Part shown: in pieces, positions 30,701 through 63,490 of the stretch
Numbering within the stretch: position 1 is the first letter of the stretch
How the letters are laid out: each line of letters opens with the position of its first letter
Sequence record: PZ386957.1
Source: a phage
Length of the DNA: 64,000 bases
Strand: one strand, 5' to 3'
Made by a program: the position numbers and the translations under genes
Notes under the pieces: generated by a model
Seen by the model: only the letters and a program-made list of their open reading frames with translations
Databases searched by the model: none
Told to the model about the DNA's origin: nothing

Positions 30701-30727
30701 TTGGTTCTCCCTTGTTTCGATGGGGGT

Positions 30728-30757
30728 ATATTACTACCCCCCGTTTCATGTTGTCAA
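30728..30757 (-). promoter_or_regulatory. Promoter TTGACA-18-TAATAT, -10 inside inverted repeat GGGGGTAG...TACCCCC
   Basis: Minus-strand read upstream of 30389-30700. Confidence 0.55.
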
Positions 30758-38568: not shown

Positions 38569-38599
38569 GTTGATTCTCCTCTCGTTTGTTTGTGGGGGT

Positions 38600-38628
38600 A
38601 TCTTACTACCCCCGTTTCATGTTGTCAA
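38600..38628 (-). promoter_or_regulatory. Promoter TTGACA-17-TAAGAT, -10 inside inverted repeat GGGGGTAG...TACCCCC
   Basis: Minus-strand read upstream of the 56-aa peptide gene. Confidence 0.6.
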
Positions 38629-39050: not shown

Positions 39051-39079
39051 ATTATGCTATAGTCGTTTATGGTTGTCAA
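39051..39079 (-). promoter_or_regulatory. Promoter TTGACA-17-CATAAT with GCACACATCGAAACGAAACACAC leader
   Basis: Minus-strand read; downstream of terminator 39085-39115. Confidence 0.65.
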
Positions 39080-39084
39080 CACCT

Positions 39085-39115
39085 AAAAACAAAAAACCCC
39101 GAAAAAATTCGGGGT
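39085..39115 (-). terminator. Intrinsic terminator after 57B
   Basis: ACCCCGAA-TTTTTT-CGGGGT then TTTTTTGTTTTT. Confidence 0.7.
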
Positions 39116-39121
39116 ATAGAA

Positions 39122-39592
39122 TTACAGTTTGGTCGTCCACTCCAGATCTAGATCTTCGACATACTCATGAGATCGGACAATCTCTAAATCGAACTCTAGG
39201 TCAGTGCCAAATTTACGCGCACCAACATCATAAGAAAGCGTGATATGCGGTACATATTCAGGATAATCCCACGTCGCACCTAAAGCAGTTCCGATATCGT
39301 GTCTGAATTGCATGTAGTCGCTTTCAAATGCCAGCACAAGTGCATTAGTACCGGATTGAGTTTCAAACACTTTCAGATGGCATAGAGAGCCTAAGAACTT
39401 CTCCCCTTCTTCTGGGATAAACGGAACATAAACACGAGAATATAAGATAGTGCTATGCAGTTTATCACGAGGAACGGCATTAGGAAGATCGTAGAACTCT
39501 TGCAATTTTTCAATGCGGTCTAGTGTATCCTCAGTGAATTTAACCGCCGCATATGTACCTTTAACGGATTCTTTGAACGGGGTCATAATCAA
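39122..39592 (-). CDS. 57B: 2H phosphoesterase (gene 57B position; Acb1-like)
   Basis: 156 aa; two H-x-T/S-x motifs (LHSTIL, PHITLS) diagnostic of the 2H superfamily; located upstream of 57A/1 as in T4. Confidence 0.7.
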   Translation of the reverse strand: MIMTPFKESVKGTYAAVKFTEDTLDRIEKLQEFYDLPNAVPRDKLHSTILYSRVYVPFIPEEGEKFLGSLCHLKVFETQSGTNALVLAFESDYMQFRHDIGTALGATWDYPEYVPHITLSYDVGARKFGTDLEFDLEIVRSHEYVEDLDLEWTTKL

Positions 39593-39855
39593 GCCTCCGT
39601 GATCAGTTCTACTTCCTCTTTAGCGTCTTCCGCTGCTTCGTCTTTAGAGAGAAGTGCTTTTACTTCTTCAACAATTGCATCAAGGGAAACAGTGCCATTT
39701 TCATCTGGCTGAATACCCAGAATACGCACCAATTCCATCAAGACGCGCTCACGATCTTTCAGTTGGCCTTCTAAGAATGCGGCTTTTTCTTGAGTGTCAA
39801 ACAGACGTACTTTCAGGACATTAATCATTTGTTCATGCTGATTGGACATATTCAC
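39589..39855 (-). CDS. 57A: Tail-fiber assembly chaperone gp57A
   Basis: 88-aa coiled-coil acidic protein; KVRLFDTQEKAAFLEGQL resembles T4 gp57A; conserved position. Confidence 0.7.
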   Translation of the reverse strand: MNMSNQHEQMINVLKVRLFDTQEKAAFLEGQLKDRERVLMELVRILGIQPDENGTVSLDAIVEEVKALLSKDEAAEDAKEEVELITEA

Positions 39856-39881: not shown

Positions 39882-40538
39882 TTAAATGTTCGCGAGAATC
39901 GCGCTTTCAAATTCTTCTAATGTACCATTATTTATGATAATGGTTTCACCGTCAATAGGCAAAATTCCTTTTTCGGTGGAGTGAGTCGATACAATACCAG
40001 TATCACGCTGAATATGCAACACCTTAGCACCCATAGCACGCATGAGAGCAATTTCAATAGGCTGACGAACATCAACCACTACAAAATACCCTTCTTCATT
40101 TTTGCGCTTCATAAACTCATTCACGAAGAGATTACACCAGTAAAGCGGATTAATCAAGTTAACCATTATATCAGTACCGAGAGTGGTTAACATGAGACGA
40201 ATAGACCAGACGTTATTATGTTTTTCGCCGATCTCATTAACGACCTTGTAAATCTCAACCAGACGGTCACACGTAAAGGAACTACCGCCACACTTCGAAT
40301 CTAGCATAAGAAGACACTGGATAAACCATTTATGCGCTGTGTAGGTATCAATACCTAGATCGGCTTCTCTGTCACGCCCTAGCCCATCAAAATCAAGATA
40401 CGTTAGACCTAAATCCGGTTGACATTCACATAAGACTTCTTTGATCGGTGCTGCTAGTTGATAACTATGACCATCAATGATTAACGCGGCAGTATCTTTC
40501 CCCACTCGTTTTTTACCACAAAGTGCAATCAATTTCAT
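39882..40538 (-). CDS. 1: Deoxynucleoside monophosphate kinase gp1
   Basis: 218 aa; MKLIALCGKKRVGKDT P-loop; LAAPIK, RLMLTTLGTD, LYWCNLF, MRAMGAKVLH match T4 gp1. Confidence 0.9.
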   Translation of the reverse strand: MKLIALCGKKRVGKDTAALIIDGHSYQLAAPIKEVLCECQPDLGLTYLDFDGLGRDREADLGIDTYTAHKWFIQCLLMLDSKCGGSSFTCDRLVEIYKVVNEIGEKHNNVWSIRLMLTTLGTDIMVNLINPLYWCNLFVNEFMKRKNEEGYFVVVDVRQPIEIALMRAMGAKVLHIQRDTGIVSTHSTEKGILPIDGETIIINNGTLEEFESAILANI

Positions 40539-40553
40539 AATATAATCCTCGTA

Positions 40554-41144
40554 TTACTTTCTAAAAGCTGGATGCATTGCTTTGATACCCTCAACCCTCT
40601 GGCGGTCAGCCGCCTGAATTGCCGGACGAGGAACGATCAATTGTCCATCCCGTTCAATGCTCATTGTTTTAAATGGAAGAATTGCAGTACATACCAGAGA
40701 TTCATGCATATCATCGGTGTATGTTAACTCAAGTTCTCCTAATTGGGAACACCAACAACCATAAAAGTTAAATGTGCATACAATGTTACGGCGTTCATTG
40801 TCCATCATGTGAACTTGAACGGCTTCCGGCATTGAATCCTTCCACGCAGTGGAGTTCCCGTTATTGTAGTCTACTATAGAAAGCATCCAGGTGTAAAGGT
40901 TTAGATAGCTTTCTAGATGTTCATCGACAATAAACCGGACTACCAACGGATCAAACTCTACATGACTAGAAGGATAGTCTGCCATAGCCAAACCATATTG
41001 ACCAGCAACTTGTTTAGTCGGTGGAATTGTTATAGCAGGAAGTGTAACACCTTGACAGTTTAAAGTAAAGCCTTTTGTTAGTTGACCATCTGGAATGGTT
41101 ATTTGCCAGTTACTAGGATTAGCATAGTTAAAGAGATTAGACAT
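40554..41144 (-). CDS. 3: Tail completion/sheath stabiliser gp3 (by position)
   Basis: 196 aa; occupies the T4 gene 3 slot between 1 and 2; no motif check possible. Confidence 0.55.
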   Translation of the reverse strand: MSNLFNYANPSNWQITIPDGQLTKGFTLNCQGVTLPAITIPPTKQVAGQYGLAMADYPSSHVEFDPLVVRFIVDEHLESYLNLYTWMLSIVDYNNGNSTAWKDSMPEAVQVHMMDNERRNIVCTFNFYGCWCSQLGELELTYTDDMHESLVCTAILPFKTMSIERDGQLIVPRPAIQAADRQRVEGIKAMHPAFRK

Positions 41145-41349
41145 GTTAATACCTTCTTAAATGAAAATATTTATCAAATAGTATCGCTTCGCGAGTGCCG
41201 GAGGCACTATTTTTGTTATTATTTTTGATGATTAATTATTAATCAAACGTGTATCTTTCAGGATAATAAAGATCACCGTTTTGGTGCTTTTTTAATCACT
41301 ACCTGTAAATTTATACAGTAATAAATAAAAGGGATAAACCGTTAGAGTA

Positions 41350-41610
41350 TTGCTTATGTCAGAAGATATTTTGTTAAAACTCTATGATCGATTAGATAAC
41401 GAGTTAGCAACATTACGTGGTGAAGTTCTCTATTTGTCTAAATGTAATCAGGATCTGCTTAAGCAGATTGCAGAAAGGGATGACCAAATAAAATCCCTTT
41501 CCGGTGCATTACGTGATCGTGACAAGGCATTAGAGATTTTACAGCGTGTAACCAATAAAGAAGAATTGAAAGATTTTCTACATGGTTATGCTCACGCCAT
41601 CGATCTATAA
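41350..41610 (+). CDS. Small coiled-coil protein (opposite strand to neighbours)
   Basis: 86 aa, heptad-rich; followed by hairpin terminator 41610-41636. Confidence 0.5.
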   Translation: MLMSEDILLKLYDRLDNELATLRGEVLYLSKCNQDLLKQIAERDDQIKSLSGALRDRDKALEILQRVTNKEELKDFLHGYAHAIDL

Positions 41611-41636
41611 TAAAAAAGCCCGTCAATGACGGGCTT
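41610..41636. terminator. Bidirectional hairpin terminator between the plus-strand small ORF and gp2
   Basis: AAGCCCGTCA-ATGACGGGCTT flanked by A-run upstream and T-run (minus read) downstream. Confidence 0.65.
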
Positions 41637-41649
41637 AATTGTATGTAGT

Positions 41650-42477
41650 TTAAAACAGTTTCCAGACTTTTCGAGCGTCGTAATTTTTTCCTTTGGACAA
41701 AAATTTATAGGTCGGAAGATATACTGCCCTAGCCCAATCTTTTGGCGATATCTCTATCAGTTTTGTCCTGATATGTCCTGGCAAATATGCTTTGATCATG
41801 TGATCACTTCCACGCATACCCTTTACGTCGCTCCATTTGATTTTTAAGCGAGTTTTATTGCTTAGACTAGGGGTAGATGCGTATTGCTTTAAAAGTGCTT
41901 CTAAGAACTGTTGACGCGCTTTAGGAGGCGCATAGTGCAAGTTCAAGCCTAACATGATCGTATTACCCGCTTTACTGGTTCCTTCACCTAGACAGATGAT
42001 CAACGGAAAAGCATCGTAAAATTCAAGAGTATTCTTATATTTTGGGTCATATGCATAAGTATAGATCCGGCCTACTTGTGGTTTTACTACCTGGTGACCT
42101 TTTACTCCTGCTTTGATAGTCTTCATAAACCATTCTTGCGACTTCTCTTTAGGTCGGGATACTTTAGCCATATCCCGGAGGGACGCACGAAAATCATTAA
42201 TAAGCATCATAGCACGTTGTTGCTTATTCAAACCTTTAGCACTTTTACCCTTTAATCGTGCAATCTCAATTGCTTGTTTAATCTCTCCTGAATAACGAGA
42301 CATACTCTTAGTGAATGTGGTATAGGGTATTCCTTTTTCTTGAGCAAATGCTTTAGCTGTAATGCCTTTTGCTTTCGCTTTAGCGAACTCTATACCCAGG
42401 TCAATCCACTGTTTAGCCTTTCTTTGTTGTGGCGTTTGCTTAACGTCTTCTTCTGTGATTATTTCAAATACGCTCAT
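41650..42477 (-). CDS. 2: DNA end-protector protein gp2
   Basis: 275 aa (T4 gp2 is 274 aa); conserved position between 3 and 4; basic DNA-binding character. Confidence 0.75.
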   Translation of the reverse strand: MSVFEIITEEDVKQTPQQRKAKQWIDLGIEFAKAKAKGITAKAFAQEKGIPYTTFTKSMSRYSGEIKQAIEIARLKGKSAKGLNKQQRAMMLINDFRASLRDMAKVSRPKEKSQEWFMKTIKAGVKGHQVVKPQVGRIYTYAYDPKYKNTLEFYDAFPLIICLGEGTSKAGNTIMLGLNLHYAPPKARQQFLEALLKQYASTPSLSNKTRLKIKWSDVKGMRGSDHMIKAYLPGHIRTKLIEISPKDWARAVYLPTYKFLSKGKNYDARKVWKLF

Positions 42478-42488
42478 AATATTATCCT

Positions 42489-42965
42489 CTATTTGTTAAG
42501 CCCTTTAAACCCGAATACTTTCTTTAATGCATGTTCGGTGATGATCTTAAACTCCATGTTATTTTTCTTACATAGTTCCACCGCCGCAGCCCATTTTTCT
42601 GTATTCACTGTGTATGTGTAACATTCTTGCATATATCTTTGCTTAGTCTTTGCCGTTATTCGTTTTGGTTTTTGTGGTGGCATTGTTTCTTTTGCTGGTT
42701 TTATTTCCCATAGATACTCCTTACCATCATCAAATTTAACTGCGATATCCATATAATAACGGCGTTTCTTGTTATCGGCGCTGGACCAGTATGGAATTAC
42801 TACCGTCTCAGATCCCCACCTAACCACATGTGGATTGCGGTCGAGCCAACGGAAAATGTGCAGCTCCCAAGATGACCGATACGTGATTTTATGAATGTTG
42901 GGACCGCGATACTTCTCAGGATTTTCTGGCTTAAATTTGCCCTTGTAAGTGTTAGATCCTCCCAT
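42489..42965 (-). CDS. 4: Head completion protein gp4
   Basis: 158 aa (T4 gp4 is 150 aa); divergent from gene 53 as in T4. Confidence 0.75.
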   Translation of the reverse strand: MGGSNTYKGKFKPENPEKYRGPNIHKITYRSSWELHIFRWLDRNPHVVRWGSETVVIPYWSSADNKKRRYYMDIAVKFDDGKEYLWEIKPAKETMPPQKPKRITAKTKQRYMQECYTYTVNTEKWAAAVELCKKNNMEFKIITEHALKKVFGFKGLNK

Positions 42966-62656: not shown

Positions 62657-63490
62657 TTGTTCGCATGGTCATATAATTCGTCGATTCGACGATATATTGT
62701 ATTGCTAGGTAATTTATTCTCCGGCGTACAGATTAAAAGGGTGCGTAGTGATGGTGAGCGTTATATTAAAGTTCCTATCACCTATGCGAAGAAAGAAAAA
62801 TTCATGATGAGTCTGGACAAATACAACAATATTGCAAGCGAAGAAGATGTTGCAAAGGTAGAAACAATTCTACCGCGTATGTGTCTTTCTTTGATCGATA
62901 TGTCTTACGCTCAGAACTTTAAAACCAATATTGCTAATAAAACAACTCCACGTTATACAGAAAATGGAATAAAGAGCATAACTCAATATAATCCGGTTCC
63001 GTATAAGTTTACGTTTGAGTTAGGGATTTATACTAGACATGAAGATGATATGTTTCAGATAATTGAACAGATTCTTCCTTATTTCCAGCCTCATTTCAAC
63101 TGTAAGATTAAAGAACTACACGGTAATGATGTATGGATCGACCGAGATATTCAGGTCACTATTAGCTCTATTACTCCAGATGAACAGGTAGGCGAAGATA
63201 AGTTTTCTCGTCGCCGTCTTGAGTGGACCATTATGTTTGAGTTTATCGGGTTTATATATCCTCCTGCAACCGACGTTAAAGGAGAGATCAGGACGATTTA
63301 TCTTGATTTTCATGCTAATTCCCGTGAATTAAATCCTAGCGGTAATTTTGAATCGGTGGACCATGAGGTGGTGAGTCGAAATGTAGATCAGAGCAAATGG
63401 GATGGAAATAGCCGAGAATCATATTCTAGTGATATTCCTGTACCAGTTGCACCGACTCCACCGGGTCCACGTATTGTAAGAGAATTTTAA
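62657..63490 (+). CDS. 15: Tail sheath stabiliser/completion protein gp15
   Basis: FAWSYNSSIRRY..PITYAKKEKFMM..VAKVETILPRM..DDMFQIIEQILPYFQPHF match T4 gp15; probable TTG start at 62657 after RBS GGAGG. Confidence 0.85.
   Translation: MFAWSYNSSIRRYIVLLGNLFSGVQIKRVRSDGERYIKVPITYAKKEKFMMSLDKYNNIASEEDVAKVETILPRMCLSLIDMSYAQNFKTNIANKTTPRYTENGIKSITQYNPVPYKFTFELGIYTRHEDDMFQIIEQILPYFQPHFNCKIKELHGNDVWIDRDIQVTISSITPDEQVGEDKFSRRRLEWTIMFEFIGFIYPPATDVKGEIRTIYLDFHANSRELNPSGNFESVDHEVVSRNVDQSKWDGNSRESYSSDIPVPVAPTPPGPRIVREF

Follow-up and report, generated by a model that had tools for sequence, protein, structure and literature searches.

In a stretch of 64,000 nucleotides (nt) of phage DNA (record PZ386957.1, the whole of which is called the window here), a plus-strand open reading frame (ORF) of 84 amino acids (aa), ORF84, lies between the minus-strand genes 3 and 2 and is separated from gene 3 by a spacer that carries several hairpins. 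Our analysis of this region suggests that two separate things stand side by side, a conserved late unit that would express ORF84 and a repeated hairpin spacer that would belong to the opposite, minus sense, and from the sequence comparisons we give this joint reading a probability of roughly 60%. The spacer with the hairpins is a repeated intergenic cassette of modest novelty, next to an ordinary gene. An initial annotation, made from the letters of this DNA, had drawn attention to a plus-strand ORF between gene 3 and gene 2 within a long run of minus-strand genes, and both its gene labels and its description of an island were correct; positions 1-42965 (about 43 kb) hold nearly only minus-strand genes, with ORF84 on the plus strand inside the run. 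The window belongs to Krischvirus (RB49-like, T4-type), as a 2-kb query around the locus matched 59 phage records, all of them Krischvirus, at 82-87% nt identity, and RB49, Phi1, JSE, GEC-3S and JK32 are among these records. The ORF84 unit consists of the following parts:

41356-41610 (stop codon included), plus strand: ORF84, an 84-aa coiled-coil protein, orthologue of RB49p130 and member of phrog_17832
41319-41327, plus strand: late-promoter-type box TAATAAATA (AATAAATA at 41320-41327), 29 nt 5' of the ATG
41616-41636, both strands: shared convergent intrinsic terminator AAGCCCGTC-AAT-GACGGGCTT, with a 9-bp stem that has 6 GC pairs

The protein had been described in the initial annotation as a coiled coil of 86 aa; the coiled coil stands, the length does not. 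An 86-aa product would start at the TTG at 41350, which is not found in relatives (they read CTT CTT ATG there), and RB49p130 starts at the ATG that matches 41356, therefore the real product is 84 aa from ATG 41356. Residues 1-84 matched positions 1-84 of the 84 in the phrog_17832 profile (E=7.6e-56), and by tblastn ORF84 was present in 59/59 Krischvirus records at 95-98% aa identity, whereas tblastn of phage records showed no orthologue in genera other than Krischvirus. RB49p130 itself is 97.6% identical and differs in two residues (S2 and Q32). Large protein collections added P0004 (74% aa identity) and P0005 (68%), and P0008 (44%), which also matches phrog_17832 (3.2e-16), was the one addition from an exhaustive profile search over 1.84 billion representatives; the remaining matches of that search were long coiled-coil proteins only. 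Scans of viral contigs and metagenomes with the ORF84 protein returned near-identical relatives only, and a 16-mer DNA scan for more diverse loci was too unspecific.

The position of the gene is as well kept as its sequence. In RB49, Phi1, JSE, GEC-3S and JK32 the RB49p130 gene agrees with ORF84 of the window in its place between genes 3 and 2, in its strand and in its terminator. Uncultured relatives with 68% and 44% identity carry the homologue at the same locus, and in all readable contexts (among them L005, L015 and L018 of the related loci, which are numbered with an L) it lies between genes 3 and 2, on the strand opposite to theirs, and is convergent with gene 2. T4, in contrast, has no gene between 3 and 2 but a 106-bp spacer. 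The ratio of nonsynonymous to synonymous substitution rates (dN/dS) of ORF84 was 0.03-0.15 in comparisons with RB49, JK32, L018 and L005, and the same range was found for gp3, gp2 and gp4. Conservation in relatives had been suggested as a check on the ORF, and the outcome was positive, with a gene that is universal in Krischvirus, low in dN/dS and fixed in its locus even in distant relatives. Judged by these comparisons, ORF84 is a real protein-coding gene under strong purifying selection. It is already annotated as hypothetical and is an uncharacterised Krischvirus core gene. ORF84 is among the few Krischvirus-universal genes that are absent from T4 and have no functional assignment, and since it evolves as slowly as the neighbouring essential head and tail completion genes it offers a well-defined and cheap knockout target for a lineage-specific step in T4-type assembly. 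Krischvirus phages are widely used in E. coli phage-therapy cocktails.

The putative late promoter of ORF84 is well supported by comparison. A near-late-promoter sequence at 41319-41327 had been pointed out before, and this observation was strengthened, as AATAAATA is the commonest variant of the T4 box, its distance to the start is normal and a perfect TATAAATA is found at the same position in three lineages (the L011/L018-L026 clade, which is closest to the window, L005 and L008). In T4 late promoters an A at -13 is the commonest deviation, occurring at 9/50 sites (PMC2988020). The window holds 12 NATAAATA boxes in all, of which six are intergenic and have a start codon 24-34 nt further on; among these six are the boxes of gene 53 (TATAAATA), gene 4 (AATAAATA), gene 3 (GATAAATA) and ORF84 (AATAAATA, 29 nt). 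Like the T4 late units, in which TATAAATA depends on gp55, gp33 and gp45, ORF84 has a -10 box with A at -13 followed by AT-rich DNA and no -35 element, and the neighbouring genes 3, 4 and 53 share this arrangement. Good ribosome-binding sites (GAGGA or AGGAG) precede the homologue in RB49, L005 and L008. We also considered whether an upstream arm might mask the ribosome-binding site, with the late promoter in the loop, as in the mechanism of T4 genes e and soc. Such a fold appears in RB49 (z = -1.9) and in L018; it is not present in the window or in L005, and it was rejected as not consistent.

At the other end of the unit, the stem-loop at 41616-41636 has a much better predicted fold than shuffled DNA, whichever strand is taken (z = -6.4 and -5.5). 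It is kept in RB49, JK32, L005 and L008, a different hairpin takes its place in L015, and the GEC-3S annotation has a terminator on both strands at the equivalent of 41616-41636. The proposal of a bidirectional terminator downstream of the ORF was right in that the rules for a terminator apply on both strands, but only the tail in the gene-2 direction (minus strand; TTTTTTATTAT / TTTTTTATTA, T6) is canonical, and the tail in the ORF84 direction (plus strand; AATTGTATGT) is weaker. Taken together, ORF84 would constitute a self-contained late unit, in which a gp55-type promoter, AATAAATA (41320-41327), would drive the 84-aa protein and the transcript would end at the stem-loop shared convergently with gene 2.

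The AlphaFold (AF2) model of the single ORF84 chain has one long helix (residues 2-64) and a short one (residues 68-83), at a predicted local distance difference test (pLDDT) value of 93.5. One unbroken heptad register runs through residues 6-62 (8 heptads), where 78% of the a and d positions are hydrophobic vs 18% elsewhere, and this contrast was reached by 0/2000 shuffles. Leu is found at d, Ile or Val at a and a single Asn (N31) also at a, and the same heptad pattern is seen in P0005 and P0008. Such a pattern is the signature of a parallel dimeric coiled coil. ORF84 resembles parallel dimeric zippers of the GCN4 type in having Leu at d, beta-branched residues at a, one buried Asn and 8 heptads, but unlike them it lacks a basic DNA-binding region and has conserved arginines (R41 and R55) at d positions. 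From its heptad pattern, ORF84 would be expected to form a parallel dimeric leucine zipper. The invariant positions of the family concentrate in LRDRDKALEIL and in the C-terminal FLxGYAH, and these surfaces of the dimer may bind a partner.

Pfam, NCBIfam and PADLOC searches with ORF84 gave sub-threshold coiled-coil noise only, a PDB sequence profile search gave no homologue of known function, and the sole real match in Foldseek comparisons with BFVD and PDB was an orthologue; in the literature we found nothing usable on Krischvirus RNA-seq or virion proteomics that names RB49p130. T4 RIII and T4 gp57A were tried as relatives and rejected (hhalign probabilities of 0.6% and 1.0%). Still, T4 gp57A and ORF84 have in common that they are acidic coiled coils of ~80-90 aa, and their genes belong to the same block, although 57A lies on the early-sense strand and has no homology to ORF84, which makes this a likeness of kind only. 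By analogy with small coiled-coil chaperones such as the non-homologous gp57A, the most likely role of ORF84 would be that of an accessory or assembly factor in virion morphogenesis, and we propose, tentatively and with rather low confidence, a late, non-enzymatic, dimeric adaptor or assembly factor. A small, non-enzymatic, late protein with a conserved C-terminal motif could also be a late regulator rather than a morphogenesis factor, acting on the timing of lysis or on the machinery of replication or transcription, for instance on the sliding clamp via the C-terminal LKDFLHGY. This motif has a loose likeness to the clamp-binding tails of RB49 gp43 (SLTDLFDI) and gp55. In ORF84, however, it is internal, lies in a predicted helix and shares only L-x-D-F/L with them, so that the comparison is not significant, and clamp binding was rejected as a candidate because the resemblance to the gp43 and gp55 C-termini is too loose and the motif internal. 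The hhalign result with RIII, the lack of a membrane segment in ORF84 and its neighbours, which are head and tail completion genes, also make a regulatory role unlikely.

The spacer between gene 3 and ORF84 contains the second part of the locus, for which we distinguish the following elements:

41160-41175, minus strand: gene-3 late-promoter box GATAAATA (41175 down to 41168) and leader start, 24 nt before the gene-3 ATG
41184-41194, both strands: hairpin A, TCGC-TTC-GCGA (GCGAAGC on the minus strand), abutting hairpin B
41195-41207 (41194-41208 with a sixth, A-T pair), both strands: hairpin B, GTGCC-GGA-GGCAC, the hairpin of the initial annotation
41209-41227, plus strand: T-rich tract ATTTTTGTTATTATTTTTG after hairpin B
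41229-41245, both strands: perfect 17-bp palindrome TGATTAAT-T-ATTAATCA, a self inverted match
41274-41296, both strands: hairpin C, CACC-GTTTT-GGTG (41274-41286), then CTTTTTTAAT

The hairpins are part of a conserved spacer of several blocks, with first hairpins A and B, next an AT-rich, palindromic block, then a block with AAAGATC..CGTTTTG and last hairpin C. The gene-3 box lies in a 16-mer, ATAAATATTTTCATTT, that is invariant in all lineages (window, RB49, L011 and L005) despite ~30% coding divergence, and that is retained in L009 after insertion of an HNH gene. A plus-oriented AGTGCC-GGA-GGCACT at 41194-41208 followed by ATTTTTGTTATTATTTTT had been reported as a hairpin with a T-tract. It is present exactly so, but the T-tract is not conserved, and hairpin A, which abuts B, and hairpin C at 41274-41286 had been overlooked. 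The 6-bp stem of hairpin B is directly followed by ATTTTTGTTA in the window, and a 6-bp hairpin is unremarkable by chance, since the window has 20 plus-oriented terminator-like matches. The RB49 group has GGCAC-TGACTAATTTTT after hairpin B and no T-run; nor is the T-run kept in L011, L005 and L008, where the DNA is merely T-rich and about equally so in both senses. The significance of hairpin B therefore lies in its conservation and covariation and not in the T-tract.

On the minus strand the minimum-free-energy fold is exactly the tandem of hairpins A and B, both of which are GC-rich, with stems of 4-5 bp and loops of three bases. When only orthologues were compared (seven variants) all A+B cells paired, and four pairs had two-sided changes. 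With the two RB49 paralogues included (nine sequences), 6/10 A+B pairs showed two-sided compensatory changes, 3/5 in hairpin A, and 98.9% of the cells were paired; 0/500 shuffles reached the observed level of covariation and slid partners fell to 19-45% paired. The variants of stem B, ATGCC/GGCAT in L005 and L008 and ACTCC/GGAGT in the RB49 copy near p164, are all Watson-Crick. The latter paralogue keeps hairpin A and swaps the whole of stem B (ACTCC-TAC-GGAGT), and every variant of the hairpin B loop is a GNA on one of the two strands. G-U pairs were found in 0 of 87 cells of the A+B stems (nine sequences from about five lineages), a count that points neither to a strand nor to RNA or DNA. 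A search of Rfam gave no family above threshold. Further into the spacer, an alignment of 8 sequences shows the palindrome block TGAyTAAT..TTAAyC to be conserved both in relatives and among the paralogous copies of RB49, and the palindrome at 41229-41245 may be a protein-binding site. Hairpin C keeps its position and differs in sequence per lineage, as seen in RB49 (TTGGTTA-TGTTT-TAACCAA), L011, L005 and L008. Compared with the RB49 group, the window spacer has an 18-nt insertion, the T-run after hairpin B and the perfect 17-bp palindrome, and a spacer of this type is absent from all 59 GenBank records.

The spacer is a dispersed repeat. With the RB49 spacer between gene 3 and ORF130 as blastn query, four places were matched in most Krischvirus records (3-4 per record). 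On an RB49 genome assembled from annotated pieces, the copies mapped as follows:

62748-62936: copy 1, the gene-3/ORF130 spacer itself
150000-150109: copy 2, in reverse orientation, 93.6% identical over 110 nt, between genes 35 and 36
97555-97762: copies 3 and 4, partial, between RB49p165 and RB49p164

The segment that recurs at 35/36 comprises hairpins A and B, the AT-rich block and hairpin C; downstream of the 35/36 copy in phage kvi lie TATAAATA, a ribosome-binding site and then the homologue of gene 36. Read in the sense of the flanking genes, all three RB49 loci have the same order: upstream gene, terminator, hairpin C, AT-rich block, hairpin B, hairpin A, promoter and downstream gene. 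An opposite-strand gene, ORF84, is found only at the gene-3 locus, and the 35/36 and p165/p164 loci have no gene on the plus side. This fixed orientation, together with an opposite-strand gene at one locus alone, is the main argument for an element that goes with the minus sense, that of gene 3, and not with ORF84. Many metagenome contigs (L022-L026) end ~98-120 nt 5' of ORF84 and three GenBank records (Skers, kvi and pEJ01) begin 36 nt 5' of it, which is consistent with assembly breaks at a dispersed repeat. The repeated spacer would break metagenome assemblies here and probably set the arbitrary start of several GenBank records. Upstream of RB49p164 (RB49 97430-97860, L150 32430-32860) we also noted a hairpin TCCGC-GTA-GCGGA followed by AGCGAGCACAGCGAGCA, and the start of contig L008 (1-40) has ATCGC-GTA-GCGAT AAGCGAACGCAGTGAGCA, which resembles it; this likeness suggests that the cassette may have a longer ancestral form.

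We propose that the element works in the minus, gene-3 sense, where it could be a secondary attenuator or insulator before the downstream promoter, a recombination substrate between copies, or both. The initial annotation had allowed that the hairpin acts on the gene-3 side, and this direction is now the better supported one; the hairpins, however, lie 5' of the gene-3 late box and would be part of a gene-3 leader only in candidate transcripts that start further upstream. Several observations weigh against the joint reading of a late ORF84 unit beside a minus-sense repeat. On the side of the gene, the ribosome-binding site of ORF84 is weak in the window (GAG), its role is assigned solely from timing, neighbourhood, constraint and shape, and no homologue of known function was found in the searches named above. 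On the side of the spacer, the 64 kb of the window hold no second copy of the element or its hairpins, and repetition is shown only in RB49-type genomes; the window equivalents of the 35/36 and p164 spacers lie outside the 64-kb window. Hairpins A and B are short, with ~-4 to -7 kcal/mol each, and have no U-tract in the gene-3 sense, hence they would be poor intrinsic terminators, and in the minus sense the strong gene-2 terminator already precedes them.

The idea that the hairpin is an orphan plus-strand terminator or the mark of an antisense RNA is not supported, as the T-tract is specific to the window, no plus-strand late box or good sigma-70 site lies upstream and the hairpin is one of a covarying pair in a repeat of fixed orientation. 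In a wider form of this idea, hairpins B (with its T-tract) and C (with its T-run) would be plus-strand terminators that insulate the late ORF84 from antisense transcription through gene 3. T5 directly follows stem B in the window, the best tail among the plus-oriented matches, tails are T-rich (6/10) in L011, L005 and L008, and a T-run follows hairpin C in 4/5 lineages. However, the tail after hairpin B is TGACTA(A/C)TTTTT in all 59 GenBank Krischvirus records, which is no proper U-tract, the opposite-sense tails are about as T-rich (5-6/10) and the stems are only 5 bp long. Positions 1-41190 contain no plus-strand NATAAATA box, the 5' half of gene 3 contains no sigma-70 site of at least 9/12, and in T4 the early and middle transcripts are all of the other polarity (PMC2988020). 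Since the RB49 copies at 35/36 and p165/p164 also have no gene on that side to insulate, plus-strand termination appears improbable.

No conserved sigma-70 promoter was found in the spacer on either strand, and such a candidate was rejected; the best sites reach 8-9/12 and are not conserved in position. A minus-strand early transcript from a sigma-70 promoter could nevertheless begin with the hairpins at its 5' end and run through gene 3 into gene 1, 57A and 57B, with the stem-loops as a shield from 5'-end-dependent decay. A TTGATT-17-AATAAT at 41246-41218 (minus strand) has its predicted start 2-3 nt before hairpin B, and in RB49 a TAACCA-17-TAGAAT overlaps hairpin C. The orientation fits the fixed polarity of the repeat, and gene 1 (dNMP kinase), which has an early function and is preceded by a late gene and by the strong gene-2 terminator, needs a promoter hereabouts. 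Against this, all candidates are 8-9/12 sites in AT-rich DNA and at chance level (23 found vs 15.4 expected), none of them is conserved in position across lineages, and gene 36 and its neighbours are purely late yet carry the same element, so that we think an early leader has little probability.

A further explanation is that the element acts as DNA, as a substrate for recombination or gene conversion or as a site for a homing endonuclease or another DNA-binding protein, which would account for the mobile genes at the spacer. The intragenomic copies of RB49 (93.6%) are more alike than the orthologous central spacers of RB49 and the window, for which the alignment is poor even though the coding DNA on either side is 91% identical. 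An HNH-AP2 gene lies exactly between the gene-3 promoter and hairpin A in L009, AV108 and phiS, an endonuclease lies beside the terminator in JSE and Phi1, and a mosaic breakpoint falls at the shared terminator (window 41611-41650), where identity to RB49 is 91-95% nt for gp1, gp3 and ORF84 and ~75% for gp2 and gp4; the window gp2 is nearer to JK32 (86%) than to RB49. All changes in the covarying pairs exchange one Watson-Crick pair for another, and none of the 87 cells has a G-U; the spacer also contains the 17-bp palindrome, and its loops are GNA with a closing C-G, read on one of the two strands. A GNA loop closed by C-G is the stable DNA mini-hairpin motif d(GCGAAGC). The stem-loop cassettes of RB49 and phi1 compared below have been reported to recombine (PMC2839356). 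On the other hand, with only nine sequences of about five lineages the absence of G-U is not decisive, and endonuclease genes insert in many T4-type intergenic spacers. We regard an action at the DNA level as a real but minor possibility. The repeated spacer marks an insertion site of mobile endonuclease genes. In L009 the HNH-AP2 gene occupies 1750-2340 between the gene-3 late promoter and hairpin A and has its own TTGACA-17-TAGATT promoter, and in JSE (L002 2620-3762) a 380-aa endonuclease is encoded between the ORF84 terminator and gene 2.

The nearest known relatives in kind are the promoter-early stem-loop (PeSL) cassettes of RB49 and phi1, described by Arbiol et al. in 2010 (PMC2839356). 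These generally have GGGG...CCCC stems and sigma-70 consensus promoters and are located in hyperplastic regions (PMC2839356). The spacer element is likewise a repeated intergenic stem-loop cassette between a gene end and the next promoter in RB49-type genomes, and both are associated with insertions of extra genes. In contrast to PeSL, however, its stems are TCGC/GCGA and GTGCC/GGCAC, it has no sigma-70 consensus promoter (best 8-9/12, position not conserved), the promoters downstream of it are late-type at two of three loci, and its 3-4 copies lie in core late regions. By this analogy the spacer element resembles PeSL in role and not in sequence. Carried further, the spacer might be an undescribed late-region counterpart of PeSL, a regulatory and recombinogenic module before late promoters (genes 3 and 36) that is homogenised by gene conversion and has served as a landing pad for ORF84 and homing endonucleases into the head/tail completion cluster; as a whole this is speculative and seems unlikely. 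If the spacer is a late-gene analogue of PeSL, modular shuffling via regulatory cassettes would not be confined to the hyperplastic early regions but would also reach the conserved structural core.

PeSL-type sequences themselves also occur in the window. On the minus strand at 39051-39115, 3' of 57B, a stem-loop ACCCCGAATTTTTTCGGGGT with a T-run is followed by TTGACA-17-CATAAT (11/12), and GGGGGTA..TACCCCC stems are found at two more intergenic sites (38594-38613 and 30722-30741).

The most distant phage, L015, has a differently built gene-3 spacer. This is 560 nt long (features noted at L015 2540-3010) with several GC-rich hairpins that have three-base loops, and it contains an array of iteron-like AGCGATTAC repeats before a TTGACA...TATAAT promoter. 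Two more plus-strand ORFs (64 and 204 aa), neither of which matches PHROG, follow there and lie 5' of the ORF84 homologue. In the window a 48-aa ORF with a TTG start (41082-41228, plus strand), antisense to the start of gene 3 and running through the hairpins, was judged spurious because of indels in relatives. The neighbouring genes, named from PHROG matches and from the annotations of RB49, JSE, JK32 and GEC-3S, are:

39589-39855, minus strand: 57A, from PHROG and the annotation of relatives
39882-40538, minus strand: gene 1, from PHROG and the annotation of relatives
40554-41144, minus strand: gene 3 (tail completion, tail-tube terminator), phrog_45 with E=3.6e-44 and RB49 annotation
41650-42477, minus strand: gene 2 (DNA end protector), phrog_429 with E=2.5e-69 and RB49 annotation
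42489-42965, minus strand: gene 4, from PHROG and the annotation of relatives
Plus strand: genes 53 and 5, from PHROG and the annotation of relatives

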